Shown here: piece after piece, positions 19,751-64,000 of the stretch
How the letters are laid out: each line of letters opens with the position of its first letter
Numbering within the stretch: the stretch's first letter is position 1
Translations under genes and position numbers: made by a program
Notes under the pieces: generated by a model
Database searches by the model: none
The model's input: the letters and a program-made list of their open reading frames with translations, nothing else
Told to the model about the DNA's origin: nothing
Source: Psammoneis japonica
Lineage: Eukaryota
Length of the DNA stretch: 64,000 nt
Assembly: GCA_008632985.1 (NCBI GenBank)
Contig: QPGO01000054.1
Location: 343,050 to 407,049, forward strand
Reading direction: 5' to 3'

Positions 19751-20059
19751 TTGTTGCTGTGTTGCTTTTTCTTGGCAAACAACCTGCAAGGAAAGATGCT
19801 TGTCACACCTGCAAGGTTTAACTTTTGGCCTCTGCTTGATGAATGAAAAGGCAGCAAAAAAGACAAAGGAAATGAAGCCAAGTTCCAACTTGTTTTCCTG
19901 GGGCCCATGCATGCAGTGATGGTTGAACATGTCACATTGGCATGACCAGGGAGGCTGAGACTTGGGTGCACGCCACTCAGAAATGGTTCTCAAAAACACA
20001 GGGACTGGAGCTTCCACTGGCAGTGACAAACAAGCACATGTGCTGCACTGTCAGAATGC

Positions 20060-20200
20060 ATTGCCCCACCATGAAGTGCACAATTGGAGCCACAGAGGCA
20101 CACATTGAAGGTGTTGGCCAAGTGAGAGCTAACCCAAGGTGTCATTCTGGCAAACCCATTTGTGATTGGGTAAAATTTGCTCAAACTGGACAATCTGCTT
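20060..20200 (+). mobile_element. Plavaka-like transposase C-terminal fragment
   Basis: GATEAHIEGVGQVRANPRCHSGKPICDWVKF matches the recalled RAxPxY...PxYDW motif with Y->C. Confidence 0.45.
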
Positions 20201-22729
20201 GCCTTGGTGTGCCCCAGTGGGCAACCATCTTCTGCAGAGAGACACCAACCAGTTTAAGTCTCAATCATTTTTGAATGACACACAAAGACACACACATTGG
20301 TTGGGGATCCCATGTTTGATCCAAGCAAGGTGTCCTCCTTGAAAAGAAAGCAGGTGCTTGTGTTCAAAGACAACCTCACTCTCAAGGAAGAAGAGCCAAG
20401 ATGGGAAGTCAAAACCTAAGAACAAATGGGTCATGCAAGTGCACCTGAATGAATTTTAAAATGGCAGGGCAGTCCAGTTGACAAGAACAGTGCAGATTGT
20501 TCTCCTCCTGAAGAAAGCAACACTGCAAGCACCTGTTTGGGCTGCTGAATGCAGGCATTGACTGTGGGCAAACCGGCTCACCCTTCTTCCTGGGATCATC
20601 AAGTTTTTTGCAGAACTCATTGTCAAATTTTTCAATGTGCCACCCTCCCTGTCTTCCAGACAAATGGGCCTTTTTTGGATTGACAGTGGAAATGCATTCT
20701 CCGCCAAAAGGAGCACTCTGATGAAGGCTGCCTTTCACCCTGACAGCTTGTCCAATGTTTCTCTCATCAGTGAAAATGACTTCAATGAAGGCTTCTTTTG
20801 TGACAAACAGGTTGAGGTTTTGACCAAGATGAGCCATGTCAAAGAAGCAATTGCCCGAGTCCCTTGTGCACTTCTTGATGACAAAACCCTTGCAGACTCT
20901 GTCTTTGCCACCATGGCAATTGCCAAATTCTCCCAGCTGGTTTGTGAAGGCAGCACAAATGTTTTTCATTGCATTCTCCTCAGCTGTTTAATTGACTGTC
21001 TTTTTGCTGATGCAATGAAAAACAAGAACAGCACTGCAAATGTCCAAATGTGACATCCAGCGCTTCCTGTCAGCACAAATGGATGCTTGACCCCTGTCAA
21101 GATTGAGTGGCACAAAAGTGAGTGCAAGCAATGTGTGTCCAATGCTTGTGGCCAGCCCAACCCAGCTTGCAAAGTGAGGAAATGTTCTTCCAACACAGTT
21201 CTTTGGGGTCTTTGCACACCCTCCTGATGTTCTTGAGTCCTGGCCTCTCCATTGGGTGGGCACTTTCCGTGGATGGTTGACAGCTGCAGAGGAACTGCAG
21301 GAGAGGAGATTCTTGTGCAACACCATCATTGGGAAGCTCCGGTCCACACACAACTGGGTTGTTGATGCTGGGATGTGTTGCAGGCAAGCCAATCAACGAA
21401 CTGGTGGAATGACAAAAGGAGGGAGCGGATGCTTGAGAAGGTGCTGCTTGGACAGTGACAGATTTGTGTGGGGTCCGGGGTGCACAGACTCACAATGGAG
21501 AGTGAGTCTGGGGTGGAGACAGAGCTCACTCAGCTGCTGCAGCAGTGGGGGAGACAAAGATGCAGTGAGTTCACCAGGGAAAGCTGGTGAACAAAGTGGG
21601 TCCATCTTCAAGAAGGGGGGGGGGGGGGCTGTGAAGTGGTCTGCAAAAAAAAAACACTGACATTGAACACATCTCCAAAGCTGTGACATGATGTGTCATG
21701 GCAATCATCCACGCAAATGATCCTTCAACAGCTGCACTCTCTGCAAAGGTGGGAGTCATCATGCAATGAACCCTGGCAGTTTGCTCTCTGGCTTGCAAGC
21801 CCAAAAAGTGGGGTTTGGTGGCTGCGCTGCCAATGTGAGGAGGAAGCATGAGCTGCACCCTGACAAAATCATTGAAGGGGGGCATGTCAACTGACATTGC
21901 TGCACCCCCGTAGAAATGGGGGCCATTGGATGAACCCCAGCAGCAACATCAGAAAATTGTCAAGAAGCACAGAACAACCACAAGCTGTGCCCCCCTGCAA
22001 GCATCATGGGGGTCATGGGATGAATGTTGGCAGCACAGCAGACATCTCCAATGTCATCCAATGCCAACCCTGTGATGCAGCTCTGCAGAACTGTGAAGAA
22101 ATGAAGAATGGCTCTGGAGATGGTGACTTCCTCCCACTTTTGACTGCATTCTGATGCTGCTTCTTTGATGGGCGAGAGTGGCGACATCCCCTGCATGCCT
22201 TTAAACTGCCGGAAGGTGATGAATGGTGACCCATGATGAACAAAAACCAACAAGTGCTGCACAGCAGCAGGTGTGTGGTGGAGAAGTGTCACTGCAGTGC
22301 ACAAAAATTGTGAGCAAAATTCCAACTGAACAAAACAAAGATTTTGGAACAAACAAACTTGTGCATTGAGTGGGACATCAAACCATGGGGAAAAAAGAGT
22401 TGTTGATTGGCACAAAAAGAAAACAGCATCACCCTAAAAAAGCTTGTGATTTGTGCAGTGCATCCATTTGGAGAACACATGGGGAGGATGCCAGCTGGGA
22501 GAATTTGGAAGAAAATGTCTGTTTCATGTGAAGTGGGACAAATTAAAAATCCAGGAAGCATCAATTAAATTTCACCACATTGCAGGAGTCATGCAGGTGC
22601 TGTGGGAGTCATGCATGGTTTTGTGGAAAAATGCAGGTTTGTCACAATGAATGTGGGTTGTCCTGCATTTGAGGAACAAACACCCAACAGATTGATGCAA
22701 AACCTGCATGGAACTTGCCTCTGACAGTG

Positions 22730-24220
22730 TGGCAGCCACATGTGTGGAAGGGGGTGAAGTCATCAACTGCTTTGTTGCAAAAAAAAAAAACTGGGCTGCA
22801 CCTGGGCAGAGTTGAGGCTTGTGTCTTGGTGGTCCTGCAGCCAGAGAGAAGGCAAGCATCAGCAACAACCGCACTGGAGCAAATCTTGTTAAGATGAGTG
22901 GCAGCATGGGCATCACAATTTTGACCGCATTTTCCAGAAGCAGACAAGTGTGCCTGACTGCTGGGCAGTGGGTGAGCTGGTGCCAGAAAGGTTGTTGTTG
23001 ACCTTGGTTGATGAGAAAGTCATGTGGTCAGAAGCACGCATTGTCATCTGCAGGCACAGTGGCTGGCACACAAGATTCTGCACATTTTGAAATGACATGG
23101 GGGGGGGTGAGTTGTGAGTTGCAGGGATGCTGACAAAAATGTGAGATGACCAACCAGGCCACAAGGCATGGTGTCAGCCATGCAAAGCTTTGAGGATGGA
23201 TTGGCGAGCAGAGGCAAGTTTTTCATGTGCTCGTCACAATCATTTGAAAAAAGGATGTGTCACACCAAATGAGCACACTCGCCACAAAAATTACAGGGAT
23301 GGGCAGAACTTTGTCTGTTCATCAGATGTCACAGAGTGCACAAACAACAGTTGTGGCCACACCATGCAGAATGTTCAGCTTGTTGACTGCAGACATGTCC
23401 ACAGAGCCAGAAATGCCAATTGTTGGCATTTGTTCCTGGAAAGTTGTTTCTTGTCTCCCACAACCAAGCAGTGCATTTTTGGCAAAAACTGGCAGTTTGT
23501 GAAACAAACAGCTTCACCAAATCCAACAATTGGCAGCCCCGATGAGGGCCAGACACCCCATGAGCATTTGGGGATGCTCAGAGGCATTGCAAAACAACAC
23601 AGGTCAAGTGCCTCTGCTCTGCTTGACAGCCCATTGTCACAAGAGAATGGGTCTCTCTCAGAAATTGTTGCTGCCTGTGGCACTGGTGCACAGCAACCAA
23701 ATGCATTGAGAAGATCTCAACAACCAGACAGGATCATCCTGCAAGCAAAAATCTCCACGGTGATCTGGCTGCCATTGGCAAATGTTGAGCTGTCGGCATG
23801 TCCTGCCCCCCTGTGTGGTGAGGATGCTGGCAGGATTTTGATCTTGCTTTCTCTTGACAAGCAAGTTGCTGCCATTGTTGTGCACTCCCCATTGGTTTTG
23901 TTTGGTCTTGAAATCCATCACTCATTGCAAGGCAGAAAAATGCACATGCTTTGAGAACTCAGAATTTTCTGTGGCCACCCATCATGTCTCCACACTCTTG
24001 CTTGCAACAGGCACACATTTCAACCCTGCTGACTGGGTGGGACAGATGAGCAGGTGGCTTGTGCAGCTGCACTCCAGTTGACCAATGCTTGGGCTCCTCC
24101 AAAGTGGAAGCACCAGCAGCAAATGCTCAAGTTTCTAGCTCAAAAGTGGAGCAAGCATGCCAACAAAAACTTTGAAGCTGAGGTGATGAAAGATGCACCA
24201 CTGGCTCTTTTGTGCATGAT
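22730..24220 (+). repeat. Diverged direct repeat, copy 2, with about 440 bp extra (about 23205-23640)
   Basis: Colinear with 17620-18550; several differences are TG versus CA swaps. Confidence 0.9.
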
Positions 24221-25296
24221 GCATGTTTGACACTCAAGCTCATTTATGAACACTGGTGGTCAAATCTAAAAGATTTGACTTGTCAATTGAAGTGGGTGCC
24301 AAACTGCAAAAAGCAGCAGGGAGACTGGTGAAACATTGAAAAGCAGCTGGCTGGCACTTGCAAAACACAACAAAGGCAGCTGCTGTGTTCTTCATTTTCA
24401 AATTTGGGTGTGCTCTCCTCACAACCTCCTCAGCATCACTGCAAGGCACAGTCACCAGCAACAAATTGTCTTGTCTCTGGAACAACACTGGTTGAACAAA
24501 GCTCACATTGCTGGATGGCACTGCTTGCTTTGTGAAGTGCAACCCTCACAGCGGTTGGGATGACGGTGCTGGCCCAAATGGAAAAAAGTCCCAGGCAAGT
24601 CAGTGGTGCAAGTCTTGAAGATCATGATGCTCTTTGTGTCATTTCAAGAAAAGAAAGAGGCAGTTTGTTGGAACCCAGCCACCGCTGCTTTTGGCTTTTG
24701 GCTTTTGGCCTGAGGGTTGCTGAGAAATGAGCACCATCCACACAGTGTGCAGCATGAGCCACACACACACACGCTGGCCCACATGGCCAAGGCATTGTGG
24801 ACACAAAAGAGCAAGGTTTTCAACAATCTTGTCTTCCAAACTCTTCTTGTGAGTTCAGACTCTCATTTTCTGCCAACATCCAGAATCTCAGGAAGTGTGA
24901 GATGGGTTGGAAAGGCTGTCACAGTGTGTTCCCAACCAATCACCTGGGACCACTGCACCTTGCTCTGGCAAGAGTTCATCCAGGAAGGATTGACAAATGG
25001 CTTGAGCTGATTTGCACACATGACTGCCTCCTGTTGCAATGGACATGTTTGAGCTCCATTTTTCAGCACCTCTGAACAGGTGGAACGGTCTCAACTTGGT
25101 CAGATTTTCCATGAGCGGACATCAAGAGTTCACACAGCGCCAATGGAATGACGCATTCTCGAGAGAATGGACACTTTTCAAGATGTGATTTGTGCCGTCT
25201 CCACCTGTCGCGTCGGTTGTCATTGACGACGAAATGGCGCATGTGAACGGCACAGCACAGAGTCCATGCTGGCATGAGTGCCGAGAACAGTTAGTC

Positions 25297-37173: not shown

Positions 37174-37502
37174 GATTGAAGCAATGAGACTTGATCTATG
37201 GACTGCAGGTGAGAGGAAAAACTGGAATTAGCAGCGGAGTGACCAACGGCAGTGGTAATAACAACAAGCGACTACAAAGGACCGAGTCTGAGGTTTGAGG
37301 AGGCACCAGCCACCCGACGACGTCAAGCCAACAAGCAATTCTCCAAGCTCCAGAAGTTGCTCCAAGCAAGAGCTTTTTGTCTTCGCGTCCAGCGTCGCGC
37401 GCCGCGCGTCGCGCACGCATGCAGCTACGGCACCATGCAGCCAAATCGAACGACGGTGTCCCCGCGCCATTGCTGAATGCCGTTAGAACTCCGACAGCTG
37501 TA

Positions 37503-38695
37503 CACCCAACACCAACACCGCAGTCGTCCAACATCGCACAACACAACAGTTGTGCAGCATCGATCGTTGAAGCTCATTGAACAAGCCAGAAGATCCGCAT
37601 GCCCTGATGGTCACGAAAGAAGAAGCCACCTCAGAGGTGGCCCGCACGCCCAGTCCTCAAAAGGAATTGTCTCCAGCGAAACGCGCCAAAGTTGGTCCCA
37701 AGGTTGATGTTGCTTTTGCAGAGAGTTTGGTTCATGCCAGCACACAAAGGCAGAGTGACGAAGAAGATCCGCGGCTTGTCAGACGGGCCGCTTTGTGGAG
37801 GAGAATTCGTCGCCAATGCTGAGACAAGAGTTTCTGCACTTTGAGTTTCTGCTTTTCCAAGATGGAGTCTAGTGATTCAGGAGAAGAGGTCATTGCTTGG
37901 TGCGGTGTCACTGCAGGCCATCTTGCAGATGATGGCAACAGCACCCACGTGTGTGCAGGAGGTGTGGGCAGCCAGGGAAACCCCATTCTCTGCGAGGTCG
38001 GTGCAGCGGTGTCCAAGTCTGCGTCGACCAATTTTTTGATCTTCTCCACAAGGAAAGATGACAGGATCCGGGTGATGGAGATGCTTCTCGCTGAGAATTT
38101 GGGTCTTGGCAATGATTTTTTCACTCTTCCAAATGAAGGAGCAAGCTTTGAAAATGGGGCAATGTTGATCAGGTTCGCTGCCCAGCAACGTGGTGCCATC
38201 AGCACGGTGAGCACCCCTTGTTTGGCTCACAATGGGAAAGCTGCAACAGCTGGAGACATTGCAGTCACTGATTGAAAATCGAGATGGCACAAGTCAGCTT
38301 GCCAATGATGGAGATGGTGGGGCCATTTTCATCTGCAAAAGTGGTGATGGTTGGTGCATCCCATGTGCTGCGCAGTTGTGCAGATGGTTGCCACAAATCC
38401 TTTGGTGTGCCTTTGAAATCTATTTTCAAGGCTCACTCACTTTTGGGAGGGGCTCCTGCTGCTCCTGCCACAGAGTGTCATCAGTCAAGCCCTGCCAAGT
38501 GCAAATTCTTTGAGTCCCACAATGTCTTGCATGTTGAAGATGTTGCGTTTGAGAATGTGGGTGACTTTTCTGAATCTCACAATCTTGCACATGGTGAGGC
38601 TGTATTTGAGCAGGACAACTCGCTTGAACGGCCAATCGCGAAACTGGGATGAAGGGCCATGCCACACCTCATGCCTCACCCAGGCACCAAAAATG
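37503..38695 (+). pseudogene. Trypsin-like serine protease pseudogene inside TpA-depleted domain 3
   Basis: WCGVTAGHL (TAGH His motif) and NDGDGGAIF (GDSG-like) motifs; in-frame TGA at 37820 and frameshifts; 2 TA in 1.2 kb while many CG remain. Confidence 0.6.
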
Positions 38696-39120
38696 ACTAA
38701 ACACGCGGATGAATCGCGTGCTTCATGTTGTCTTCCATCCCGTGGACTACGCGCAGGTAAAAAAAAACAGGAAACATCTAATGTTGGTCGTATTTGATTG
38801 ATTTGATTGATCATTATTGCCGGACGTCAATGCGGAATGCGGTAGTACAGTAGTCCGCCTTCTTCCCCCATCGATTCATTTAGTGCATCGGATCTCAATA
38901 TGGATACGGTATTGTTTTATGATAAGCTGCAAGAATTGTTTCGCCTAATGTAAATCGACGTTCAGCTTGTTTTCAACAGCACAGCATCTCTATACCATGC
39001 GCCCATCTTAGCTTGTGACAGCAATCTAGGAGCCTATCTAACGTTTAATGTGCAGCATAAAGTCATTCAAGATCTTAGAGTCCCAAAAGTCGAAACAATT
39101 ATGTATTGTGCAGTTCATAT

Positions 39121-40209: not shown

Positions 40210-40795
40210 AGCAGTCATCTCTTCCTTCCCGCGGGAATGAATTTGAGTCGATCACGCCAACGCCGCCACACTGACTTTGCTCACTGGATTTAGAAATTCA
40301 AACAAAGAAAAACAGAATTTGCTTTCTTTGCCTGAACAAAAGAGATTTGGCTGTGGGTCTTGCTCTTCTTTTTGCATGTGCCGGGTCAACAAGAGAGCAG
40401 CTGTGCCTCTCTCCACTGGCGCAAAAGCTGGGGCGAAATTTGGCTGGGGCTCCGCCTCAAAAGAAAAAAACACAGGAGCCCAGAGCAGCGTCTCTTTGTT
40501 TGCCAAACGAAAAATGCGTCACACGCCTTTTCTGTGGGTGGCTGTCCCATCTGCCCAGGGGCTTTCTAGCTGGCCCAAAGCTCTCGACTTTTGGAGGTGT
40601 CCACGGCCACTCAAGAAATGGGAAGTCAACGCGGCGTGGCACTTCAGACTGAGCGACAGAGGGCAGGGGGGGGGAGCAGGGAACAAAGGAGAACCACCGA
40701 GCGCGCGAGGACACGAACAATTCGGCGATGGAGAAGGAAGAAAAGGAGAGGCCTTCTTTTCAAATGCTTGGCTGGAGTCGCAGTCGTGTGCGTTG
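40210..40795. other. Small TpA-depleted domain 4
   Basis: Only TTAG (40291) and CTAG (40567) remain in about 590 bp; AT-rich TA-containing flanks; CG retained; G9 run. Confidence 0.7.
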
Positions 40796-41243: not shown

Positions 41244-42156
41244 ATGACAAGAATTAGACGGACACTATTCATCTGCGCTACACTTCTTTCGGCAGCAGCA
41301 TCGGGTAGCACAGATGTGAAGGAGAGTAGCGTAAGCCAACACGAGTTAGCGACAGTCAGAGATTCACGCCTACTCGGTAAGTTCTCATTTCAAGAGTTGT
41401 GTGTAATCATTTCTGCCATGTGAAAATGAAATTGGGACGAATTTGCACCTCCCCGGACCTGGAATATGGTGAATCATAGCTAAAGTAGATGTTTGTGTGC
41501 AGTGGTTGCGGCTATCAAAGTCTCAGTTTATGATTCATGAGAAAGCTTTGCAGCCAGAAACCCTAAAGACAAAAGGAAAACTGGAAATATCGTTTACTGT
41601 TGGCACCACTCGGCTGACTATAACTTTCTCCATTTCACTCTCGCACATTTGTGTTTGAACAGGGGACGAGACACCGAAAGTTCATCATCATCATGCTGGC
41701 ACGGACGGTGGTGGTGGTGGAACAGGAGGAGGCGGCGGTGGCGGCGGCGGCGGCGGAGGAGGTGGCGGTGGTGGAGGAGGTGGAGGTGGTGGTGGAGGAG
41801 GAGGCGGTGGTGGTGGCGGTGGCGGAGGAGGCGGTGGTGGTGGCGGAGGAGGAGGTGGTGGAGGTGGCGGTGGAGGAAGTGGGGCATCGGGAGCGAGGCA
41901 CGCTCCAGCTGGGGTAGCACGCAGAAACACAATGCTTTTGGTAGGCATCGCAACAACTATTGGCTTGGTAATCGCAGGTACAGTGATGCGCAAGCGACGA
42001 GTGGTGACTGAGGCACATCCACTTCAAGGAAGCTTAGACCGCAGAATGAAATTGTTTGGAACTCTTGCAGGAAAGACAGATTCCCGTCACAACCGTCCGG
42101 CACGGCGACATGAGGATGAATATGAATCTATGGGTGATGACGGTGTCATGGCCTGA
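41244..42156 (+). CDS. Single-pass membrane protein, SAP-like family member C, with poly-Gly linker (internal exon structure uncertain)
   Basis: Signal peptide, DSRLL (RxL), HHHH, long Gly tract, TM-VMRKRR, then AHPLQGSLDRRMKLFG. Confidence 0.7.
41707..41878 (+). repeat. GGN trinucleotide tract encoding poly-glycine
   Basis: Mixed GGT/GGC/GGA codons in frame with the downstream TM exon. Confidence 0.9.
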
Positions 42157-42341: not shown

Positions 42342-43139
42342 CTATTTTTGCTTTGCGTTATCGAACGCAGCTTCCGCATTTTTGTGATCAATTTCGTCGT
42401 GATATGGACCGCTTTGGGAAAGCGCAACACACTTTGAAGCAGAGTTGGCCCACTGGCCAGTTACCTCGCAAGGAGCGACTGCCAGTTGAGGGTAATGCTT
42501 ATTGATTGTTTCAACCAGCGCCTTGCCCACAAATTCGTTTCCCTCACGTGAGAAATGAAGTCCGTCGAAAAAGAAAGGTCCAATATCATCCTTTTCGGAT
42601 TGCATTTCCTTCCATAAATTCAGACACGGTAATTTGTTTGCATTGGCAACTTCTTCTGCGGCGGACGAATACTTTTGAGACAGGTCCATGTTGCGTTCCA
42701 ATTCACCCGTAGCACCTTCTGCACCATAACGCTGCTTTTGATAAGCCAGTCTCTGCTCATGATGGACTGGGGGACAACCAATCACAACAATGGGGATATC
42801 ACTTCCAAACTTATTTCTGCACATGTCAACAAGTTGTTGTAGGTTCGTCTTGAAGCGATCCAACGGAACGTGATGATGCGGATTCAATTCCTCGTCAGAC
42901 GAGTCGTTGGCTCCAAAGAAAATAGTCACCAAGACCACATTGTCTTGATCTAGAATATTCTCCTGATTGACGTACCGATTATACCAGTCGGTGTTATAGC
43001 CAGACATGCCACGACAAACCACGTCGGCTCGGCGTTGATAGACATCCTGCAAATGCGCACCCCAGCCTCCCATGACTGCCGAGAGCGACAACTGAGTTAG
43101 AGAGTCACCCAATAAGAGAATCTTGGGACGATTAGGCAT
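42342..43139 (-). CDS. IAH1: Isoamyl acetate-hydrolysing esterase-like SGNH hydrolase
   Basis: LLLGDSLTQ, RRADVVCRGMSGYNT, FFGANDS, DGLHFSREGN. Confidence 0.88.
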   Translation of the reverse strand: MPNRPKILLLGDSLTQLSLSAVMGGWGAHLQDVYQRRADVVCRGMSGYNTDWYNRYVNQENILDQDNVVLVTIFFGANDSSDEELNPHHHVPLDRFKTNLQQLVDMCRNKFGSDIPIVVIGCPPVHHEQRLAYQKQRYGAEGATGELERNMDLSQKYSSAAEEVANANKLPCLNLWKEMQSEKDDIGPFFFDGLHFSREGNEFVGKALVETINKHYPQLAVAPCEVTGQWANSASKCVALSQSGPYHDEIDHKNAEAAFDNAKQK

Positions 43140-43549
43140 TTTGAATCCGGTCCTCTCAGTCCACAACAACAGATAGGAATGGAAGCACAACGTACACCAG
43201 AAAACAGGAAACAGGAAAAGGCTCTCGTCACAAAAAGTGAGGCGATCGCGACAATCGCGATATCGTCGCGCGGGGCGCGGGGCGGACAGGCGAATTTTGA
43301 TTTTCGGCTGGCTGGCTGGCGGCCAGACTACAGGGATGAAATCAAGATGATGCTGCACCGCCCGGTGCTACCGGTGCTGTATGTGATGTATGATAGAAGT
43401 ATGATAGACCTCTCTCTGCTACTCTACTAACTAGAGCTACCGTAGCTAGAACCAAGGATTTACCTGCAAGTAGAACACAGGGCCCACCGGTGGGAGTTTG
43501 CTGACATCGGTGCCCATTCACACACGTTCTCACTGGCACGATGACTTGC

Positions 43550-45069
43550 TGAAAGCTCTGTCCAGCAAGCACTTTAAAATGTCTAACTGGCAATGATTTC
43601 ATTTCAGCAAATCCAGCAGACCTTCTCTTTGGTGTCCAAAGTCTCATCTGTTGACTCGTGCGAACAGTGGAGATTGCGCACTCCCTGACACAGACACCAA
43701 AACTTGAGGCATCCAGCAGCGAAGCCACAGATGATCCCTCCGCATCCAGCATCCTCGTTCACATCCAGCGAAGCATCTCTGGAGGTGTCGCAGTCACAAA
43801 CATTGACCCGGGCACAGACCTTTTGGAAATCATGAAAGCTCATCCAGAAGCACCCGTCGTCTCTTCAGCTTCAAATTGCAACTGCTTGGCAATGCTCTTG
43901 TGCTTCTTCCACGCGCTCAAGTGATCGCTCCACTTCCCCTTCCACTCGTGGGTTCCCCAAGGGTTTCGTAACTTCATGAGCTTGCACGGTTTGGCTCCTG
44001 ATGTGGGAAGACCTGTCGCATTGCGATCAGTGACTTCTGCAGCAGATGTGACACTGCAAGCATGACCGGCAACGAGTCCATCCTTTTCGAGCATTTGCTC
44101 ACCACTCGGCCCGTCCATCTTGCGACAGTCCATTTCACCAATAGAAGCGGAAATGAGAGCCTTTTGCTTGTCACGCTTTTTAAGGAGTGTCCACAATTGG
44201 TCCTTGGAGCATTTTTCCTTGGTCGTGCCAAATCCACAAGCACGCTTGTTGCTTGGATTCTTGCCATCCTTGAGAGCCACCATGTCTTCCCAAACCCAAG
44301 CGTGACTCTTGGGGTCCAACGACATTTGAAACACGTCATCGCCTGTCATGGACAGCCAACCCCACAGGACGAAACCACCAGAAACGTCTGCACAACTGCC
44401 ACAGAACTTGGCGCAAGCCTTCTCGAGAAGGATCGCCCACACAGTTCATTCCCCCGTTGGGTTTCATGAACCAAGGCTTCTTGGAACCCTTCTTGCAGGG
44501 AATGCGGTCATTGACCGTGATGATGACCCATCGTTTGTGTTGTGGATCAAACATGCGAATCTTGTGCGTGCCACAAGGACTGCACTCCTTGGTGAGAAAC
44601 ATGTGACGAATCACATCGGGAAATTCCGAAGCACACGCAAAGGCAGCCACCAACTGGCAATCACCGACAGCACCTTGACACAAGTCACTCGGCTCAATTT
44701 TCCCCTCAAACAACTGAGGTCTCTTTCCCCTGAACGCACCCAAATCTTGTGCTCTTGCCCAATCGGTCTCCTTTTGCATTTGTGTTGCAGCAGGCTTGGA
44801 CCTGTCTTCTTTGGAATGATCTCCGAGAGCGGCTGCTCCGTGAAACTTGTTGTCTTCGCATGGATGTCCAAAGCAGCAACAGCAGACAAACCTCCACAAA
44901 CAGCCGTTTCCCACATTGAGACAGCGCTGACAGAGAACCGTGGCACAGGGAAAGCCGTGGATTCGAGTGGATTTGTAGAGAAGCCCAATGGCAGACATGA
45001 AGGGGCAGCGCACAAAAGATTCCAGAGGAACCCTGCCCTGCCACTCTCAATTTCCTTGAAGGTAGGCAT
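43550..45069 (-). pseudogene. Calpain-like (CysPc) cysteine protease pseudogene inside TpA-depleted domain 5
   Basis: DLCQGAVGDC, WAILLEKACAK, GLVAGHACSV and KLRNPWGTHEWKGKWSD motifs; frameshifts near 45010 and 44445; conserved Tyr positions read Cys or His. Confidence 0.92.
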
Positions 45070-45537: not shown

Positions 45538-46632
45538 ATGGCTTCTCAGGAGGAACGGGATCGTATTCTGGCAGAGTACATGGCGAACGTTCAAAATGAT
45601 GATGACGATGATGAAGGAGAGTTTGATCCATCCGGTGTGGATGAGGACGACGAATCCGATTCTTCTTCTGTCAATCAGGTGGAGGACGATAATACCGGTG
45701 TTATGTTGACGGGGACACTGACGAAAAAGGACAATCGTCTCGTGTATTCGGGCACATGGAAAGAATCCGCAGGCACTGGAGAATACAAATTCAAGCTTAA
45801 ATCCAAACAGCAGAAACTGCCGCTTCATTGGGATGCTTCCAAGCCCACCGTGTCGGACCCGTCCGTGGAGAGCATTCCGCGCATGAGAAGCTTGACGTTT
45901 GATGGTTTCTTCTTTTCCATGGAAGGTAACAAAATGAAGGAACGCGACGTTAACGTTACCTTCACAGCTCAAGCAGAAAGCGGCTCGAACGATAAATTGA
46001 AGTCATACAAGAATGATTCACAAAACGATGATAGTTCAGACGAGAAGCCGGCATCGAAACCTACCGCTCATGAAGAAGACAGCAAAATGCCTTCCAAGCC
46101 TGCAGCTGTAGAAGAAGAGGACGGCAAGCTGCCATCCAAACCCGCAGCCGTAGAAGACGAGGATGAGAAGCTGCCCTCCAAGCCCGCCGCAGTAGAAAAC
46201 GAAGATGGAAAGCTGCCCTCCAAGCCGGCTGCAGTAGAAGACGAAGATGGAAAGCTGCCCTCTAAACCGGCTGCTGCAGTGAATGGTCCGAATACTCGCT
46301 GTAGTGTTTACGGACGGGGCGTTAACGACTATGGGAACTTTGAATTTGAGGGGACCTACGACGGAACCGGTCAACTCATGTGTCGGAAAAAGTACATTCA
46401 GTCGGTGGCTGCTGCTGCTGGAGCCGCGGCAGCTGTCTCGTCGGATGATAATGATGAAGCCGACGACGCAGTGGACTATGAAGAGTTGATTGCGTTACAC
46501 CAAGATGCAGGACTTCCTGTGGAAGAGTTGCAAAAGCGTTATCGCGAACAGCGCAACAATTCAGAGGGAAACACCTCGAGCAAGAGGCAGCGCATTCAAG
46601 AGAGCGATGAAGACGATTTCGATGGTTTCTAA
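45538..46632 (+). CDS. Acidic protein of unknown function with 14-aa tandem repeats
   Basis: Open 364-codon frame; (KLPSKPAAVEDEDG)x5; C-terminal YEELIALHQDAGLPVEELQKRY. Confidence 0.75.
   Translation: MASQEERDRILAEYMANVQNDDDDDEGEFDPSGVDEDDESDSSSVNQVEDDNTGVMLTGTLTKKDNRLVYSGTWKESAGTGEYKFKLKSKQQKLPLHWDASKPTVSDPSVESIPRMRSLTFDGFFFSMEGNKMKERDVNVTFTAQAESGSNDKLKSYKNDSQNDDSSDEKPASKPTAHEEDSKMPSKPAAVEEEDGKLPSKPAAVEDEDEKLPSKPAAVENEDGKLPSKPAAVEDEDGKLPSKPAAAVNGPNTRCSVYGRGVNDYGNFEFEGTYDGTGQLMCRKKYIQSVAAAAGAAAAVSSDDNDEADDAVDYEELIALHQDAGLPVEELQKRYREQRNNSEGNTSSKRQRIQESDEDDFDGF
46084..46280 (+). repeat. Coding 42-bp minisatellite, about 5 units
   Basis: aagctgccctccaagcc(c/g)gc(c/t)gcagtagaa(g/a)acgaagatgga units with mostly synonymous variation. 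Confidence 0.9.
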
Positions 46633-51239: not shown

Positions 51240-53500
51240 ATGTGTTGGTTGATTGCTGACATGGCAGGTGCAGCATTGACGGTCGCCGTTTGCAACAGAG
51301 ATGATGTGAGTGGGGAGTTTGTTTTGACGTGGAATTTCTTGCACGGATGTCCACAGCATGGGGGCATCATTTTGTCATGACAAGTGCACCTTCAATTTCA
51401 GCACCAAGATTGTGGCAGATGATCTACATTGTTTGAATGTGACACAAAACTGATGAGATGATTTGATCCACATTTTGTGGTTTTTCAGCCTGTCCAACTG
51501 CACAGGCAACATGAGTGGCATGAGAGATGCAGACCAAATGAGGAAGGTCAGGGTCACCAGAATGAGGCACGTCATCTGTGACCACATTCTTGACACCAGC
51601 AAGATGCTTGCCAAGGGAGTCAATGCCAACATTCCCACAAATGCAAATGGCAGACCAAATGCAGCACAAGAGCCATTCATTGCCCCAAATGGCTGATCCA
51701 TCTGGGGGGAGGGGGCTGATGATGTGGCAGCTGTGCTCCCACAAACTCTTTGCACTTGGCATTCTTGAGAGAGTTGTTGATGGTCAGGCTGTGCTGGGAA
51801 GAACCTTCAGACCCCACCACAGGAGAAAAAGAGCCAGACAAAATTCTTCAATCTCATCAGAAGAAACATGCTGGACATGTCAGGCACCTCTTTTTGAGGA
51901 ACCTCCCGAGTGATGAAAGGAGTGACAAGCTCTTTCCCCACAAGAAAGGGGGGGGAGAGTTCAACAACAGAAACACCAATTGGGTCTGGAGACAAGAGAG
52001 AACACCTGTGCACCCAGGCTTGCAAGATGCCCGGCAATGTCATGGGCCCTGATGTTGACATCCTGGGAGTTGCAAGTCACCTGGTGGCAGTGGGGCATTG
52101 CACCAAGCTGAAAGGAAGGTTGGACAACACCTTGAATGTTGCTGAGCATGCTTGCAGCCAGCCACTTTAACTGAAGGTGACACTTCAATGATGGAGAGTG
52201 CTCCCCCAGATTGCGATGCAATCAAAGTCCTTGACACAGGCATTGAAGACAAGCCTGAAGTTGCCAGTTTTTGAGATGGCATCTGACGAATTGTGAGCAG
52301 CCACAATCATTGATGCACACAACCAACTTCTTGACAAACTCAGAGCCATTGCATTGCCAGAGCTGGGGTCAACAGAATGCTTGGAGATCCCACGACCCTC
52401 CACAATGGCAAAGCAGCAATGAGAGAGTGACCCATGTGCAGCATGGGCAGAAACAAAAACTGCGGATGACTTTGCCTCCCAGCCATTGACCCACCCAACA
52501 CCTCAACATGAACCACAATCCAAACCCTGCTGCCCATGTCCCTCCTGACATTTGCCATTTCCATTTCCTCTCTCTTTCCCTGTGGCCTCCCATGCTGTGG
52601 TCAGTTTTTGCTTGAAACCCTTGAGTGGCTGCACAACTTTTGCAACCAATTTGGTTCCAGAAGCAACTTTTGCAACAATTCACAAGCTTGGATGTGGCAA
52701 CTTCTTTGGCAACCCATGGCCACCGGCCCTTTGACTTTTGCTGCCCACAATCTTGGGTCCTGCAGCTTTTGCAACACACAGCCTTGGGTGTGCCCACAAC
52801 CCCCCTTGAAGGTGGCTGCAAGTTTCTTTCCAAGAAAAGCAGGAGACAGAGTCTGTCTTGAGGCCAGAGGCAGCTGAAGCTGGAGCTTGATTTTGCTGGG
52901 ATGGACACAGCACACCATGCTGCCAAAATTCCCACTCTGAGCATGGAAAACTCAGCGAGATGGTGAAAGAGAAAAAAAGGTGCTCCTGCTGGTGTGCCAA
53001 AGTGTGAGCGGCACTTGCACCGCTGACCCAGGCAACTCTTTGTTCATGTTGGCAACCACAAAAGTGATTTTTAGCATGATTGACATGAACCCAATTTGTC
53101 CAAGCTTGGCACGAAAGATGTGGTTTCTCAGCGACCATTTGCCGGGTGATGTGTCACTTCTGTCACTGGCAAACATGGCAAATGACTGACTTCATGACAA
53201 ACAACAACACCTGCATGCACGAATCAAACCCCAAAAGACTTGCAGGCATGCTTGCACACTGCTCCAGCCCCCAGCACCACTTCCGCCAGCCTCCAGAGCA
53301 GAGCCACACCACCTGCCCTTGGCCAGGTTGTTCCCAAGAACCGGTTGTCCATCCAGCCATCATGCCAGCCACAGCCACCCACCCACCATGCCGGTGAGGC
53401 CCCACCTGCCACACCACACCAGCCATCCAGCCAGGACCCGACTTTAGTGCACAATCCCTTGCCAGGCCAGGCCAGGCCAGGCCAGCCATCGCCAGGACCA
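51240..53500. other. TpA/CpG-depleted hypermutated domain 6 (unidentified relic) ending in (GCCAG)5
   Basis: About 3 TA in 2.2 kb (51425, 52168, 53445); gccag x5 at 53461-53485. Confidence 0.85.
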
Positions 53501-56703: not shown

Positions 56704-58943
56704 TCAAACGCTGGAAATGTCGGATTGGACGCTGGCGGTGTCTCCCTTACTAGCAATGCTTCCGTTCAGAGACATGACTGACATTTCGGGATTCATGGTC
56801 AGCAAGGTGGCGTCTTTGGCGACGATTCGGGAGAGGTCCTCATTGTCGCTCTCCAAGTTTGCGTTCAAGCGCTCCAACAACGCAGTCATGGATCTCTCCA
56901 GGGGAGGAAACGCCATATTGAACTGATCTAAATGAGGCTTCAAGTCAGACTGGATCGAGTTGTCGCAAAAGATTTGACCAATGTCCGAAATATCCGACAT
57001 GAGCTTGCTCTCCTTGCACTCGCGTATATCCTCGGAAAGATCCGTGAGCCTTTTCGCCAGCGTTCCACACTTCTCACGGTGGGTCTTTTGCGCCGCCATT
57101 GCGGTTTTCTTGACAGCAGCAATGTCCTTGGTGGCAACCTTGAGAGCCTTTTCGATCTCCTTGAGTTCAGCCACGTTGGCCTCGTGGTCCAAGTCCAGCT
57201 GCCTGCCTTCCTCTTGGAGAGCCGTCTGCAGCGACCTGTCGTTGTTCATTTCTTCGGCGAACTTTTGCTTGAACTCATCGTAGTATTCCATCCCCTTAAA
57301 GGGACGCTCGACAAACATATAAACTTTGAATGGCTTGTCACGAGTCAGTTGCAGCGACAGCTCTTCTCCTTTGCTCACAGGAATAACTCCGCAATCATTG
57401 ACGTTCGTGTAGGAGTTGTAAAGGACCTTTTCGTGCTTTGTCATACGAATATCCTTGATGGATGACGGGATGAGCGAATTACCACGACCAATTATGCCCT
57501 TGAGCGCATTGTCATCGTCCTCATGCTCCATGATGAGGGTGAGTCGCTCAGTATTCTTCCCAGTCTTGTCGACACCATGAAGGTGAGCTTTGATGTTGAC
57601 CGAGTGCATGATTGGATCCCGCTTCCGCTTTGGAACGATTTCCCACGATGCATCACAGCGCATGGTGACGAAACCCTTGTCAACGAAATGTTTCCCAAAG
57701 AGCTCATTTTGCTTCTTATGCACGGCGAGAAGATCATCCAGGTGGCGAATGGTGTCATCAATGTTCTTCCTCGCGGCCGGGTAATGATCAATGGCCTTGT
57801 CGAGATCCCGTTGCTTCCGACACAGGTTTCTGAATGCTGCGATTGCTCCTCGCATTTCACGGTCAATCTTGGATGTCTCCATTGCCAGTTGAGACTGAAG
57901 GCGATCAAGGTCACCCTTTGAGATTTCGGAGTCGGCGACGAGTTTCGCTTGAACCTTGCGCACCATTGCAATATGCTCCACGCACATTTTGTTCAAAAGG
58001 TTTCCCGACGCTTCCAATTTATCAATCTTCCAGGAGCGAGCTCGAGGGATCGACTGTTGTTCCACTTCATCCGAACGAATCATTCCAAAGATCTTCTCCT
58101 GTAGCTCTTCCCTGCCATCTTCGTCAAGATCAACAAGAATATGACGATCACCGATGCGGTTCAAGAAAAGTCCCCCAAGATGTGAATCTTTGGAGATTGC
58201 TTTTGCCGTCTTCATCATGGTGTACTCGATTTTCTCGCTGTCCAAGTCGGGGTCTTCATTCTTCGTCAGAACAAAGTACAAGTGACCAATGGCGTTCCGG
58301 TATTGATCTCCGAACAGCAGAGAGAGGGGCTTGTGGTAGTGATGGATCAATGTCTCCACGCTTGTTTCAAAGATCTTTTGCGCTTCCAATACAACGACCA
58401 ACTTGGTTTTCGTCAAACGGGTCAAGAAGCACTTTTGGAGAATGTCAATTGTGACCTTCTTCTGGCGATTGTGCTCGGCAAATCCGGGCATGTCGCAGAA
58501 ATGCATGCCGTTGATAGTGTACACCTTGGGTACCACAGTAGTGGAGTTTGCCAAATGTCCAATGGCAATGCCCGAGATTTCACAGTACCGCTTGTTGTCC
58601 CCCGTCCGATTCGAAATGATCTCGACAAACTCCTCTTGCGATAAATCGCTGATGAGTCGAGCAATGGTTGTGGACTGCAGCAGAGGGACAGAAACAAATA
58701 CACAGTTTGAGCACAGATGCAAGGCTTCAGTAAAAGCTCATCATATCCTTCTCGAGGACGTACCTTGCCAGCCCCCGTGATTCCGAACGTCACATAGCAA
58801 ATAGCCTCGCTTCCGCGTCGCGTGTATTCGCTATCTTTCAGAGACTCGTCAAAGTCACGATAATGCTCTTTGAATTCTGCGACAAGCTCCTCAAAGTTAA
58901 TCGGCTCCTCCACTCTTTCGGTGGCTCCGTTGGTTTTGCACAT
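56704..58943 (-). CDS. P-loop GTPase-like protein with long coiled coils, 2 exons
   Basis: Splicing intron 58675-58763 restores G1 GITGAGK|ST; G3 DMPG; G4-like LTKNE. Confidence 0.78.
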
Positions 58944-59078
58944 GATTGACGAAAGCGCTCGGCTTGAAAAAGTGAGGCCAATGTGCGATGATTTGTGTTG
59001 CCGAGTCGATCATGATTAGAACAATGCACGAATCGATTCTTCGACCAAACAAGTAGACTTGTACTTGAAGTCGTCAGC

Positions 59079-59206
59079 CAGAAGCTGAGTCGATGCACGA
59101 ATCGGCTAACCAGAAGCTGATTCAATGAACGAATCGGCTGACCAAAAGCTGAGTCGATGCACGAATCGGCTAACCAGAAGCTGAGTCGATGCGCAAATCG
59201 GCTAAA
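59079..59206. repeat. 32-bp tandem array, 4 units, each an imperfect hairpin
   Basis: cagaagctgagtcgatgcacgaatcggctaac units at 59079, 59111, 59143 and 59175. Confidence 0.92.
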
Positions 59207-59229
59207 AGATCTGTACGAGCACCACTTCT

Positions 59230-62200
59230 ATGAGCTGCAATCTTTGCCAGAGAGACAGAGAGAAGTTGAGCCGGGGCACCCTCAACCTGCCAATTTTTCC
59301 AAAACGAACATCCATCCTCCTGAATCATTTGCTGCGATTCCCAGTCAATCCACGTGAAATTTTTTTGGAAACACCCGTGGGTCAACATGCCGAGGTGATG
59401 AGTGCTGAGTGCCTTGTTGTCGGCTGAGCATTGCAGCAGGTTGACCGTGCGGACGTGCTCTGATGTCACCCCCACGACACTCAACAGATGATGAAGCCAG
59501 CACTTTTGGTGAAGAGCATGCCATCGTTAATGAGAGATTCGTTTGCTGCCTTTGTCAATGGCCTGTCTTGGGTGGTCTGGAAATTGACTTGAATCAATTT
59601 GCCCATCCCGACACCCAACATGAAATGCACACACTGTGCAGTTTTCAATCCCATCATGAGGGACCAAGGGGCAGTTTCCCCCAACATGTGCCCATCCCCC
59701 AACCAATGGCAATGAGTCAGCACTGCCATGTTTCTGTGCTCCAGCTTGTGCCTCACTTGCTTGTCTTGCCATGTGACATCAAGACATTTGTCAATGGACC
59801 CCAGCTCTGTCTCCTCTGCTGCAGCTGCACTTTGCACATGGGGCCACTTTGAAAATGGAGGTGAAGCCTTTGGCACTGCTGAGCTCACCTTGAATGAAAC
59901 TGTGGTTTGCTGCCAAGTCTTCTTGTTCATTGGTGCAAGCACTCTTGAAGGTCTCACACCAAAGCAGGTTCGTCAGATTGGAGCAATTCAATGAGATGAC
60001 TTGGCTGCAATTGCAGCAGACAGTCAGAGTCAGCAAGACCAAAGAAGCTAGATGCTGTGCCCTCATTGATCTGGAACCCCCCCCCCACTGGGAGAGACAG
60101 CTCCCTGGGTGCACCACCAGGGAGTTGTGTGGTCTTTGCCAGCGGGTCAGCCAGATGCTTGTCCAACAAGGAGATCTTGAATTTTTTTGCAGATCAATCC
60201 TGTGCACTCCATGTGTGTGCTGCCTTTTTGATGATGGAAAAGGTCACAGCACCACTTAAAATCAGATGGCACAACAAAAGAAAGTGATCATCCAAAATGA
60301 AGTGGGAAAAACGGGGCTGGCAGATCATTGGTTGTTTGGTTCAGACAATCAACCCCCCTTTTTTTTGCACTCAAAGAGTCTCTTGTTGTCACCACATGAC
60401 AATGGTTTTTCTGAGGGTTTTTTTTTCACTCAAAGAGTCTTTTGTTGTCACCACATGACAACGGTTTTTCTGCCTGCATCTCTGCAAAGGGGGGGCAATG
60501 GAAAAATCAGCTCTGCAAATTTGCGCAGGTGCACTGCTGAGGCAAGCCAAGGGTGGTTCACATGCTTGTGCAACAGAGACCACAGAGGTGATTTTTGACA
60601 CATGTCCCACATGTGTGTGCCACCATGTGCTCTGTTGCGACCAAGGGAACACCCCGCTTGAAAGCATTTTTGTGTTTGCTGTTCAAAGTGAGCAACTCCA
60701 CAGCAAATGATGGTTGATTTTCTGGCACACACAGTCAACCCACTGAGCCTGAGCTTCCAAACACAAGTGAGCCCACTGTGGTGAGATTAAAAAATTGCAA
60801 GGGAAGACAACACACTGGTGGGCCAGCTTTTGTTCAACCACAATGACCAAGATGACATTGACACAAAGAAAGTTGCAGGATTTGTCCTGGATGTTGTGGT
60901 GCACCATTGCCTCATCTTGCAATCACGAGCATTTGCGCTCTGTTGGGCAGCCCTTTTGATGAGCACAACAATGTCAAAAAAGCCAAAAAGCAGCTGTTTT
61001 GCTTTCTTGCAGAACCTTCAGTGATGTTGAACCAAAGCAACAAAAGAGTGGACACTTCTGACACTTCCTTGGAATCCAGTGAACAAAAGTTTGGTTGGCA
61101 ACAGACTCCATCTTCACCAGCTTGAGCAGGGAAGTTGTTGCTTGTGATCATGTTGGAGAGAGCTGGATTTGCACTCCTCATTAAAAGAACACCAACAAGG
61201 ATTTGGGCTGTTGGCACTCAGACATTGCATGTGTTGGTCAGAATCTCTTTGTTGCAAAAGATTCACATGATTTTGAGCATTTGGAGCTGGGTTTTCTTGA
61301 GTGCAAGAACCTTTTGTGCTGTGCCAAAGCAGAGGTTCTTTGTTCCCTGCATGTGTGAGTTTTTTAAACACCTCTCCAACAACAACAACTCAAATTTGTT
61401 GGAGCCCTTTTTGGTCAATCTGTTGCAGCAACATGCCAATGTGAGCGGCTCTCCAAAATTGCTCTGGCATTTTCAGCGACAAAATGAGTTGCCCTTGTGA
61501 CAGTTTTGTGTGTTCTGCCCTGCCACTTGTTGTCAATGAACTTTGTCCAGTTGTCAACAGGTTGCCCCAAGCAGTGCTTTGAGTTGGCTTTTACATTGCT
61601 TGGCACAGGTGCTCAATCACAACTGGCATGAACTCCAGCCCACACATCTTTGAGTGCAATTGCCAACAACCATGAGCCCAACAGTCTGCCTTTCCTGTTG
61701 CAGCACCTTGTGGCAGTGTTCAATGTGAACCTAATGTGCTGGTGGTTGAAACAAACTTGGGACTTGGCTGCAATGTGCTTTTTCTTCTTTGCCTCTGTGC
61801 CTGTCCATCTGACAGCCTGGAAGACATCATGGCCATTTGTGACAGCAACTTGGCCTGGAGGTCATTTGCACACTGCATCATGAAGGATGCATGGGGTGCT
61901 TCTGGTTTTGTGTGTTCTGGGATCCTTGGCAAAGAATCTGTGGCTGCTTTCCATTCTGTCAGTTCTGCAATTTCCAGGGGGAACCAAGTGGGGTGTCAGC
62001 ACTTTGTGCCCTCCAATTTCTGAAGGCTCTGGTCATTGCCACAGATCTTCAACATCTCTTTCTTTCTGCTCATTTCAAGGCACATGGCATCCCCAAGAAG
62101 AGGCTCTTTCATTGCTGCTGTGGAGTCAGTCGTCCAATGCCAACTTCTTACACTTCTCTCTTTTGGTGATTTCATTCTTGGCTTTCCCAAAGCTGTGTTG

Positions 62201-64000
62201 TCATGCTTTGTCCATGCATGGAATGAAAGCATCATTTTAAACAACTGTGTCCAGCAGGACTGTCAAAAACATCATTGCACTTGACCCACAGGTCCTGGAA
62301 TTCTTCATCTGAAATCTCAGCAGCTTTGCACAACTTTTGTCAAGATGGTTGGACAACATGACAGCAAACTCCTTCTCTTTGCAACTCCTGTCCTTGCTGT
62401 CATTTCAGTTGTCTGCTGAAAATGCATGCATGCACAAGCAAAAAAATTTATGGCCAGCTGCACAAAGTCAGAGTCTTTGGGTCAAACATGAGGAAAATCT
62501 GCAGGTTTCTGCACATTTCTGGTGCAAACAAGCACACTTTTCCATTGATGGTGGAGAGCCCACCAAATGCATCACTTGGTGCCACACCTTGTTTGTTGAT
62601 GAGTCATTGCTGTTCCTGTGAGTGTTGCAGAGAGCAACTCATTTGTCACACCTCTGCTGCATGTGCACAGCTTTGTGAGGTCAATGCTGTCTTTTGGCAA
62701 CCCACAAGACTGGAGAAACAAAGGAGAAAAAAATCAAAATCTCCTGCATTTCCATGGAGGCTTGTCACAATGTCTTGAAGTTCACATTCCATTGGGCAAG
62801 ATGCTGCTTTGCAAGTTGTTGCTTTTGGGGCTTGTGTTTGGGCATCATGTGTGCAGTTTGACCACCTTTTTCAATTTAAGTGGGAACAGGTCAGCAGGAC
62901 AAATTGAAGAAGAGTTGCCAATCACAGCTGCAAGCAAAGCTCCAAACCAACTTGAGTTTGTCACAGACTTGGCTGGCATTGGTTGAATCTTTTGAGCAAT
63001 GTTTGTTGGCAGCAGCAAAAGTCAGATGTGCCATTTGGCTCACGATGCATGTTGCACATGCACACATTGCTTGGACTGTGCAGTGTCTTTTTCTAATTCT
63101 TGCCCTCCCATGCAGCACCACCTGCAAATGCAAATGGCTTTGAATCATTTGAAAAATTGTCTGAAAAACAATTCTTGCTGTTGGCATTGACATGACTTGT
63201 CCCAAATTGGGCGGCAAACATGAGAACAATTGTTCCCAGTCAAAGGCTCATTTGACAATCACAAGGGCATGTGCAGTCCAAGCACATTTTCCAGTGGCCC
63301 AAACACACTGTTTGGCAGAATGGGAAAGAGATTTTTGGCTCAACACACACCTCCTTGGACCACAATTCAATGGCTTTTGCATTGAAAAGTGCCATGGAAA
63401 GAGTGGAGTTTGATCATCTTGTGAAACTCCAGCTGATTCATTCATGGCAATGACATTGCTTGCATGTTGCGCATTCCTCACTCTGCACATTTGTCCATTT
63501 CTCTTGATGCTCTAACAAGAGAAATCAACTCTTGTCTCACAGCTAAATTCCAACAACCCCAACAGCTCTTGCAATTGATCCCAGGCCAACTTGTGTCACT
63601 CATGTTCAAGAACAGCAACATCAGCTTCATGGTTGTCATGAAACAAAATCATCAAATGCTGTCACTCTGCACTGAGGATTGAGCTGCCCATGATGACACA
63701 CAACAGCTGGAGCTGTTGCAGTGCTTCTTGCACAACAGGGCCTTCACAATTTCACAGCAGAGACCACCCATTTGGTTTCAAGACACTGGTGCTGGTTCAG
63801 GACTGAGTGTCTCATTTTGAAAGTCCAGTTCCAGCAAACACAAGATGAGCTGATGAGCATTGTTTCTTCCAAATGTCCAAGTGGACTTGCATGGTTGTGC
63901 CCTGCTGCATGGCAGACAACTTTCACAATCAGCTCGCAATTGCAGCAACCAGTGCAGGGACAATTTCTGTCATCACAGTGCTTCCTGCAAAACACCATGG
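59230..64000. other. TpA/CpG-depleted hypermutated domain 7 (continues past the window end)
   Basis: About 14 TA in 4.8 kb, about 12 of them in Y-TA-R context. Confidence 0.9.
61700..63000 (+). mobile_element. Probable Plavaka-like transposase relic
   Basis: Ordered fragments SLEDIM..DAWGASGFV, SLCNSCPC and SLGATPCLLM resemble recalled LEP..AWR.LG / LCR.C.C / GATP.D.MH motifs; heavily decayed. Confidence 0.35.

Follow-up and report, generated by a model that had tools for sequence, protein, structure and literature searches.

The diatom Psammoneis japonica carries, within a 64,000-nucleotide (nt) stretch of contig QPGO01000054.1 (positions 343,050 to 407,049; hereafter the window), a dead copy of a conserved calpain gene from which the dinucleotide TpA has been almost entirely erased. 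The process acted on DNA, locally and on both strands, converting TpA stepwise to TpG or CpA until near saturation, with a slower decay of CpG to TpG or CpA in the same domain. The direction of change, TA to TG or CA, is supported by two independent lines of sequence comparison, one with homologous proteins and one with a second allele or strain. A literature search that ran without most subscription journals found no report of TpA loss in a diatom, and as far as that search reaches, this kind of hypermutation has so far been reported only in the chlorarachniophyte Bigelowiella natans and is described here for the first time in diatoms.

Three frame pieces of the gene, which lies on the reverse strand, match the Peptidase_C2 profile (PF00648) with E values of 2.5e-15, 4.4e-27 and 0.0047 and bit scores of 56.8, 95.4 and 16.5, the last of these falling below the gathering cut-off of 23.8, and the profile places the gene in that family. 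A search of a protein collection with the middle piece as query returned 54 matches, 47 of which form a tight family of proteins of 357-509 amino acids; the closest homologue, P0001, shares 72% identity with that query. Diatoms make up the named sources (Epithemia, Nitzschia, Cylindrotheca and Entomoneis, together with the centric Thalassiosira and Chaetoceros), and the family is kept across pennate and centric lineages. GDC, GHA and RNPWG, whose positions we take to be the calpain catalytic triad, align with the homologues, and the codons for the catalytic Cys, His and Asn are all still present.

The gene can no longer be read as a single open reading frame (ORF). Because four 2-nt insertions break its frame (Table 1) and a second sequence of the locus has TAG at a Trp codon, it is a pseudogene, a dead copy of a conserved diatom calpain standing at an ordinary genic locus. 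All four frame breaks look like +2 tandem duplications, and none is a 1-nt indel. On one side lies a GDSL lipase gene (42342-43139) and on the other an ORF with no Pfam match (45538-46632). The original prediction, made from the letters of the window alone, held that a host-type gene rather than a transposon had been struck; the presence of the family in pennate and centric diatoms (47 matches), the copy's own start codon and its position between ordinary genes bear this out.

The loss of TpA is sharply bounded. Between the retained TpA at 43584 and that at 44976 (43585-44975, 1391 nt) there are 3 TpA; the density in 12 intact ORFs of the same window predicts 42.4 (Poisson P = 5e-15), so that about 93% of the expected TpA is gone; in the block as a whole TpA is retained at 43575, 43584, 43969, 44142 and 44181. 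Just below 43472 there are 15 TpA within 100 nt, above 44976 the density is normal, and the first ~95 nt of the coding sequence (CDS) escape the loss. Dinucleotide odds in the block are 0.05 for TA, 0.64 for CG, 1.49 for CA and 1.47 for TG, compared with window-wide TA odds of 0.40. The density of CpG is 43.9 per kb, compared with 58.6 in the intact ORFs, and that of CpA plus TpG is 186.9 per kb compared with 149.2; in the balance ~39 TpA and ~20 CpG are missing and ~52 CpA or TpG have been gained, at a GC content of ~49%. Synonymous and non-coding positions are affected as well: T in the third position before a codon starting with A occurs in 3 of 126 cases versus 196 of 1276 in intact ORFs (P = 6e-6), and C in that place in 65 of 126 (52%) versus 32%. 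CpG survival relative to intact ORFs is 0.74 in TCG, 0.71 in ACG, 0.75 in CCG and 0.76 in GCG, an equal loss (~25%) across the four 5′ contexts and hence the independence from the 5′ base that is looked for in methyl-CpG decay.

Dinucleotide bias by itself gives no direction of mutation, which is supplied here by conserved Tyr codons and by a less-mutated allele. We aligned the pseudogene with the 47 homologues and treated a column as conserved where at least 80% of the homologues agree. The pseudogene is unchanged in 229 of 257 such columns and changed in 28. All eight conserved Tyr columns are changed (five to Cys, two to His and one to Arg) compared with 20 of the 249 others (Fisher P = 7e-9), and none of the 47 homologues carries the pseudogene's residue at any of the eight. 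Across the 15 columns in which Tyr is commonest the pseudogene has Cys in 8, His in 3, Arg in 1, another residue in 3 and Tyr in none, and its Tyr content is 0.2% (1 of 489 positions) versus 2.4-3.8% in the homologues.

About 23 of the 28 changes in conserved columns are one-step transitions from TpA or CpG to TpG or CpA, with 14-16 of the 28 being single TpA transitions and 7 being CpG transitions. Those at TpA outside Tyr codons include V>A (GTA>GCA), I>T (ATA>ACA) and I>M (ATA>ATG); in T>A (twice) and K>E (once) the changed A is preceded by the T of the previous codon, the TpA thus spanning a codon boundary. The CpG transitions are R>C (two), R>W (two), S>L (one) and D>N (two). On the coding strand 13 changes are A>G and 7 are T>C, and because this asymmetry is not significant (P = 0.26) both strands must have been mutated. 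At one invariant Tyr codon (44173..44175) both bases of the TA are mutated in the window.

These comparisons answer most of what the original prediction had claimed. The five motifs it quoted are present on the reverse strand with the codons it gave (EKACAK, GCT TGC at 44415; GSCADV, AGT TGT at 44394; GHACSV, GCT TGC at 44058; GTHKIR, ACG CAC at 44566; WARA, GCA at 44758). Its interpretation of Cys and His in place of Tyr as TpA transitions, running from TA to TG or CA, holds: none of the eight conserved Tyr is kept, and the second allele or strain retains TAC and TAG at two of the changed codons. It had also described a fast and nearly saturating loss of TpA, with many CpG surviving, in a protein otherwise barely diverged, and this accords with the ~93% loss of TpA, the CpG density given above and the ~5 of 257 conserved columns that are changed outside a TA or CG context. 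Of the two outcomes it had named as contrary to its view, homologues sharing the pseudogene's residues at the conserved Tyr positions are not seen (0 of 47), and relative to the homologues the substitutions are not spread evenly over contexts (~23 of 28 changes at TpA or CpG).

The second sequence comes from X1, a public DNA run that matches the window (0.92 of sampled words) and whose library type is not on record. Of the 9501 nt compared, 9298 are covered by its contigs (word depth ~60) at 99% identity or more, the TA-free block included, and a single 12.5-kb contig spans the calpain block. Inside the block there is no indel between X1 and the window, and all four 2-nt insertions are common to both, including the GC insertion at 45008..45009, which is absent from the list of indels. 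Twelve substitutions separate the two sequences, 7 of them in the 1504-nt block and 5 in 7794 nt elsewhere (odds ratio 7.3, P = 0.001); this 7-fold excess comes from the comparison of two sequences.

All seven differences in the block are exchanges of TA or CG with CA or TG. X1 has TAC (Tyr) at 44859 and TAG at 44656, the corresponding codons of the window being TGC and CAG. At 44142 TA stands in the window and CA in X1, and the remaining four are CG versus CA or TG, two in each direction. By site class, differences are found at 3 of 5 TA sites, 4 of 63 CG sites and none of 1368 other positions. The X1 intermediate also gives the path TGG>TAG>CAG at 44654..44656. Because each of the two sequences has private TA and CG changes, the change was stepwise, at the level of DNA and in both lineages; it accrued site by site and continued after the alleles or strains had split, with TA a faster target than CG. 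The allelic states that X1 shows are real, and an artefact at the level of reads is made less likely by contigs so clean and deep. Outside the calpain block the transitions between X1 and the window (38589, 40604, 41644 and 42308) are likewise all TA or CG versus CA or TG, the window having TA and X1 TG at 42308, and the change at 40742 is the sole transversion among the differences. Another run, X2, whose spliced joints indicate that it is probably RNA, gave contigs on neighbouring genes and none over 43474-45058 or 37451-39035, which is not evidence of silence.

One further gene-sized block free of TpA, with part of its CpG kept (Table 1), can also be read as a decayed protein-coding copy. 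An exhaustive search with the ORF at 37823-38275 found P0055 (334 amino acids; E 1e-58), which belongs to a small, unannotated family with 19 matches and no Pfam match. The window copy (37607-38610, forward strand) contains an internal stop and can be aligned as three frame pieces, 58-79% identical; four of the five Tyr of P0055 align to it, and they have become Cys (two) and His (two). One of its frame breaks, at 37821-22 (GA), is again a +2 tandem duplication, and the two readable blocks together contain five such dinucleotide duplications (GC, GG, TG, GA and GA). The motif DDGDCG of this family, which presumably resembles the active site of chymotrypsin-fold cysteine proteases, reads NDGDGG in the window copy. 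In P0063, which has a different source and is 87% identical to P0055, two of the P0055 Tyr are matched by Cys and His (WYGV>WCGV, LAYGE>LAHGE), and because of these residues copies of the family in another organism may also have been struck by the same process.

Table 1. Coordinates in the window of the calpain pseudogene, its diagnostic codons and the TpA-poor blocks
Feature	Position	Strand	Basis or remark
Calpain (Peptidase_C2) pseudogene	43604..45069	-	ATG at 45069 to TGA at 43604-43606; readable only as five frame segments
TpA-depleted block	43472..44975		3′ flank and CDS except first ~95 nt; TA odds 0.05
2-nt insertion GC, tandem duplication, first frame break	45008..45009	-	Homologue alignment
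2-nt insertion GG, second frame break	44451..44452	-	Homologue alignment
2-nt insertion TG, third frame break	44440..44441	-	Homologue alignment
2-nt insertion GA before GAC, fourth frame break	43862..43863	-	Homologue alignment
TGC (Cys) at Tyr column	44858..44860	-	Tyr in 35/42 homologues; X1 reads TAC (Tyr)
GCA in DWARA	44756..44758	-	Val in 37/45 homologues; GTA>GCA
CAG (Gln) at invariant Trp after catalytic Cys (GDCW>GDCQ)	44654..44656	-	Trp in 47/47 homologues; X1 reads TAG
CAC in GTHKIR	44564..44566	-	Tyr in 47/47 homologues
TGC in EKACAK	44413..44415	-	Tyr in 47/47 homologues
TGT in GSCADV	44392..44394	-	Tyr in 47/47 homologues
CGT (Arg) at invariant Tyr column	44173..44175	-	Tyr in 47/47 homologues; X1 reads TGC
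TGC in GHACSV, adjoining catalytic His	44056..44058	-	Tyr in 47/47 homologues
Second gene-sized TpA-free block, decayed protein-coding copy	37501..38603	+	Homologue P0055, frame breaks, internal stop
Blocks keeping part of CG, as the calpain block does	37501-38603, 40291-40567
Large blocks, TA and CG both lost (CG odds 0.0-0.3)	5967-7449, 16682-25292, 51425-53445, 59229-64000		Long ORFs in all six frames

A comparable process has been followed in mutation-accumulation lines of B. natans (Mettrop et al., bioRxiv 10.64898/2026.01.13.699255). In that preprint two integrated viral regions received 231 of the 302 new mutations; with a single exception these were A>G or T>C, every such change lying on TpA. 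The mutation rate in the regions was about 1000 times that of the background, and some lines were not affected. The preprint describes one of the regions as single-copy and silent, reports that the genome also has clusters and CDS that are poor in TpA, rich in CpA+TpG and enriched in transposon domains, includes CDS with host-type Pfam domains among the TpA-poor ones, and mentions neither CpG nor diatoms.

Set beside that account, the calpain block has the same A>G and T>C changes at TpA to give TpG or CpA, the same sharp borders with TpA depletion and CpA+TpG gain, and a raised polymorphism (27-fold there, about 7-fold here), and a second copy is not needed there and probably not here. The two differ in lineage, a rhizarian alga there and a diatom, a stramenopile, here. 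They differ also in their targets, which in B. natans are 186-kb giant-virus and 25-kb virophage inserts that still hold thousands of TpA (Rho 0.45), whereas those described here are gene-sized (about 1-1.5 kb), near saturation (odds 0.05) and, in the calpain block, of host type rather than foreign (viral). CpG decay and +2 duplications accompany the loss of TpA in P. japonica. The B. natans mutations were seen arising in the laboratory, whereas those in the window are deduced from homologues and one allele comparison. New here, then, are the lineage, the near-saturation, the gene-sized and host-type targets, the co-occurring CpG decay, and a direction obtained from conserved codons and a less-mutated allele.

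Taken as a whole, the observations are probably best explained by local, DNA-level TpA hypermutation of a silenced calpain copy, accompanied by slower CpG decay and driven by a deaminase. A domain of ~1.5 kb, roughly the transcribed body of the calpain gene, has undergone change of TpA to TpG or CpA; both strands were targeted, and both bases of one site were sometimes changed, giving CpG. The chemistry would be conversion of adenine to inosine, read as G, at an A preceded by T, and the enzyme would be a DNA-acting deaminase brought to silenced chromatin. An adenine deaminase is our best guess because of the proposal made in the B. natans preprint, the deamination of DNA by amphioxus ADAT2/3, and the context of the tRNA A34 deaminases, which act on A following U33. 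Mettrop et al. propose an ADAT2-like DNA adenine deaminase (bioRxiv 10.64898/2026.01.13.699255), and in amphioxus ADAT2/3 acts on DNA to deaminate A as well as C (PMC10354150).

Targeting would be by gene-sized silencing, perhaps guided by transcripts, and not by sequence duplication. Silencing of the gene unit is suggested as the trigger because the extent of the block is roughly that of the transcribed body; the data neither support duplication nor exclude it. The loss of CpG would come from deamination of 5-methyl-CpG, and the equal loss in all 5′ contexts fits better with this than with a TCG-specific enzyme. TCG-specific cytosine deamination of the amphioxus ADAT2 type was considered, 6 of the 7 inferred CpG transitions lying in TCG, but was set aside with surviving CpG being reduced equally in the four contexts. 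The CpG decay of methylated transposons is alike in its CpG>TpG/CpA changes (seven inferred events and four allele differences in the calpain block, near complete in the older blocks), but it cannot produce the loss of TpA, which is faster (polymorphism at 3 of 5 TA sites versus 4 of 63 CG sites). The same process has probably erased TpA, and, given longer exposure or heavier methylation, CpG too, from the larger, unrecognisable blocks of the window.

Several observations weigh against this explanation. X1 may be the window's own source sample, in which case it does not confirm the sequence in a fully independent way. About 5 of the 28 conserved-column changes match neither a TpA nor a CpG context, and the step TGG>TAG at 44655 is a C>T change at a non-CpG site. 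Deamination does not account for the +2 tandem duplications that make up all four calpain frame breaks, and the target is a host-type gene, unlike the viral DNA of B. natans. Moreover, TpA is palindromic, and A>G is therefore indistinguishable by sequence from T>C chemistry on the opposite strand.

This last point admits a local TpA process that runs through thymine, in which a TET/JBP-type oxidase would make 5-hydroxymethyl- or 5-formyl-uracil at TpA, and pairing of these with G would cause T>C. Oxidised thymine mispairs with G, and hydroxymethyluracil and base J prefer T before A in some protists. The sequence data fit such chemistry equally well, but nothing in the window points to it and the sole experimental precedent is read by its authors as adenine deamination, itself unproven; we consider it improbable. 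We would call unlikely a defence triggered by duplication, in which a second calpain copy marked this one, possibly through diatom DNMT4, a relative of fungal RID. Its model is repeat-induced point mutation (RIP) as found in Neurospora and other fungi, which is likewise a local, dinucleotide-specific transition hypermutation of DNA that kills genes and repeats in place with sharp borders. The abrupt borders of the calpain block and its extent over part of the gene recall RIP tracts, which track the duplicated segment, a direct repeat in an older block is heavily mutated, and diatom DNMT4 groups with RID, its function being given as unknown (PMC9998398). RIP, however, deaminates C (CpA>TpA) and so creates TpA and lowers GC, whereas here TpA is destroyed at a GC content near one half, and it needs a duplication and a sexual cycle, neither of which is shown here. 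No second calpain was found in the 64-kb window, none among the X1 contigs at 80% likeness (weak evidence, as is the single contig that spans the block), and none above 72% identity to the pseudogene in the protein collection; the hypermutated nucleocytoplasmic large DNA virus (NCLDV) region of B. natans is itself single-copy.

Editing could instead have taken place in RNA, with double-stranded calpain RNA hyperedited from A to I and returned to the genome by reverse transcription and gene conversion. The tract takes in the 3′ end and the body and leaves out the first ~95 nt of the CDS, much like a 5′-truncated cDNA, and ADAR-type editing prefers U before the edited A (bioRxiv 10.64898/2026.01.13.699255). 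The coding strand has both T>C (7) and A>G (13), however, CpG transitions share the tract, and the private single-site changes of the two alleles mean stepwise accumulation and not one conversion event, which makes this route very unlikely. ADARs are, to our knowledge, confined to animals. APOBEC and ADAR editing has reportedly left clustered deaminase-type transitions fixed in genomic copies of vertebrate retroelements, and the calpain block resembles such footprints in unwanted sequences; these arise during reverse transcription or in RNA, on one strand and in new insertions, whereas here a resident gene was altered in place and on both strands.

A sequencing or assembly artefact, such as systematic miscalling of modified bases in silent chromatin over a gene that is really intact, would find some room in the unrecorded library type of X1 and its possible identity with the window's source. 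We hold it to be highly improbable, as X1 contigs at a word depth of ~60 repeat both the TA-free sequence and the four 2-nt insertions and depart from the window at seven block positions only, all TA/CG versus CA/TG; nor would miscalling yield a TAG stop, residue-altering CpG>TpG changes or +2 insertions. Finally, the codons for the catalytic Cys, His and Asn remain, as they would in a functional, fast-evolving paralogue where selection had put Cys and His in place of Tyr. Four frame breaks and the TAG at a Trp site in X1 speak against function, TpA is lost at synonymous and non-coding positions too, and the replacing residues occur in 0 of 47 homologues, so that we give this practically no credence; the frame breaks already refute it unless they are assembly errors.

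Local TpA hypermutation driven by a deaminase remains the explanation that we prefer, and the calpain block is the easiest place in the window to read the ancestral state. The window-wide TA odds are low because several blocks are almost without TpA. Four large blocks have lost CpG as well (Table 1), and a short stretch of 276 nt (40291-40567) is TA-free with CpG partly retained. Two Pfam scans of ORFs from these other blocks gave no significant match, one of 96 ORFs of at least 90 amino acids at E<=0.001 and one of 72 ORFs, 40 of them shorter, at E<=0.05, in which two at E ~0.04 are noise. The large TA- and CG-free blocks are presumably old, fully mutated mobile or viral DNA. Inside the largest, 16682-25292, there is a heavily mutated direct repeat (17616-18553 and 22728-24225, 72-75% identical), possibly the two long terminal repeats of a dead retroelement. 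Over 500 well-aligned columns the repeats are 79% identical, and of the 41 adjacent double differences between them 13, more than of any other kind, are CA<->TG; decay has gone too far for the pair to yield more.

Elsewhere in the window, an intact 600-amino-acid ORF on the reverse strand (56704-58506) comes last among the 12 intact ORFs in TA density (17 per kb versus 23-39), and around 57501-58250 the TA odds of 500-nt windows are 0.13-0.23, CpG being normal. Composition may account for this low TA content, or the same process may be at an early stage here. Self-comparison also revealed short tandem repeats at 41706-41882, 46088-46274, 59078-59205 and 60359-60472.

Loss of TpA on this scale has consequences for how such DNA is read. 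Blocks without TAA, TAG, TTA and CTA present long false ORFs in all six frames, remnants of transposons or viruses inside them become invisible to profile searches (no significant Pfam match here), and the dating of pseudogenes by divergence goes badly wrong within them. The calpain case extends hypermutation from one chlorarachniophyte preprint (2026) to the diatoms, a major and genetically tractable group of algae, and shows that the process can saturate, strike a host-type gene and work on gene-sized domains. If an enzyme lies behind it, that enzyme would be a natural A-to-G editor of DNA with TpA specificity. It is possible, though we advance it tentatively and with some doubt, that diatoms have a dedicated defence in the form of a TpA-specific DNA adenine deaminase, perhaps guided by transcripts, that quickly erases single silenced genes and mobile elements; such a defence would also be present in Rhizaria, as an old feature of the stramenopile-alveolate-rhizarian (SAR) lineage, and could strike or finish off host genes.

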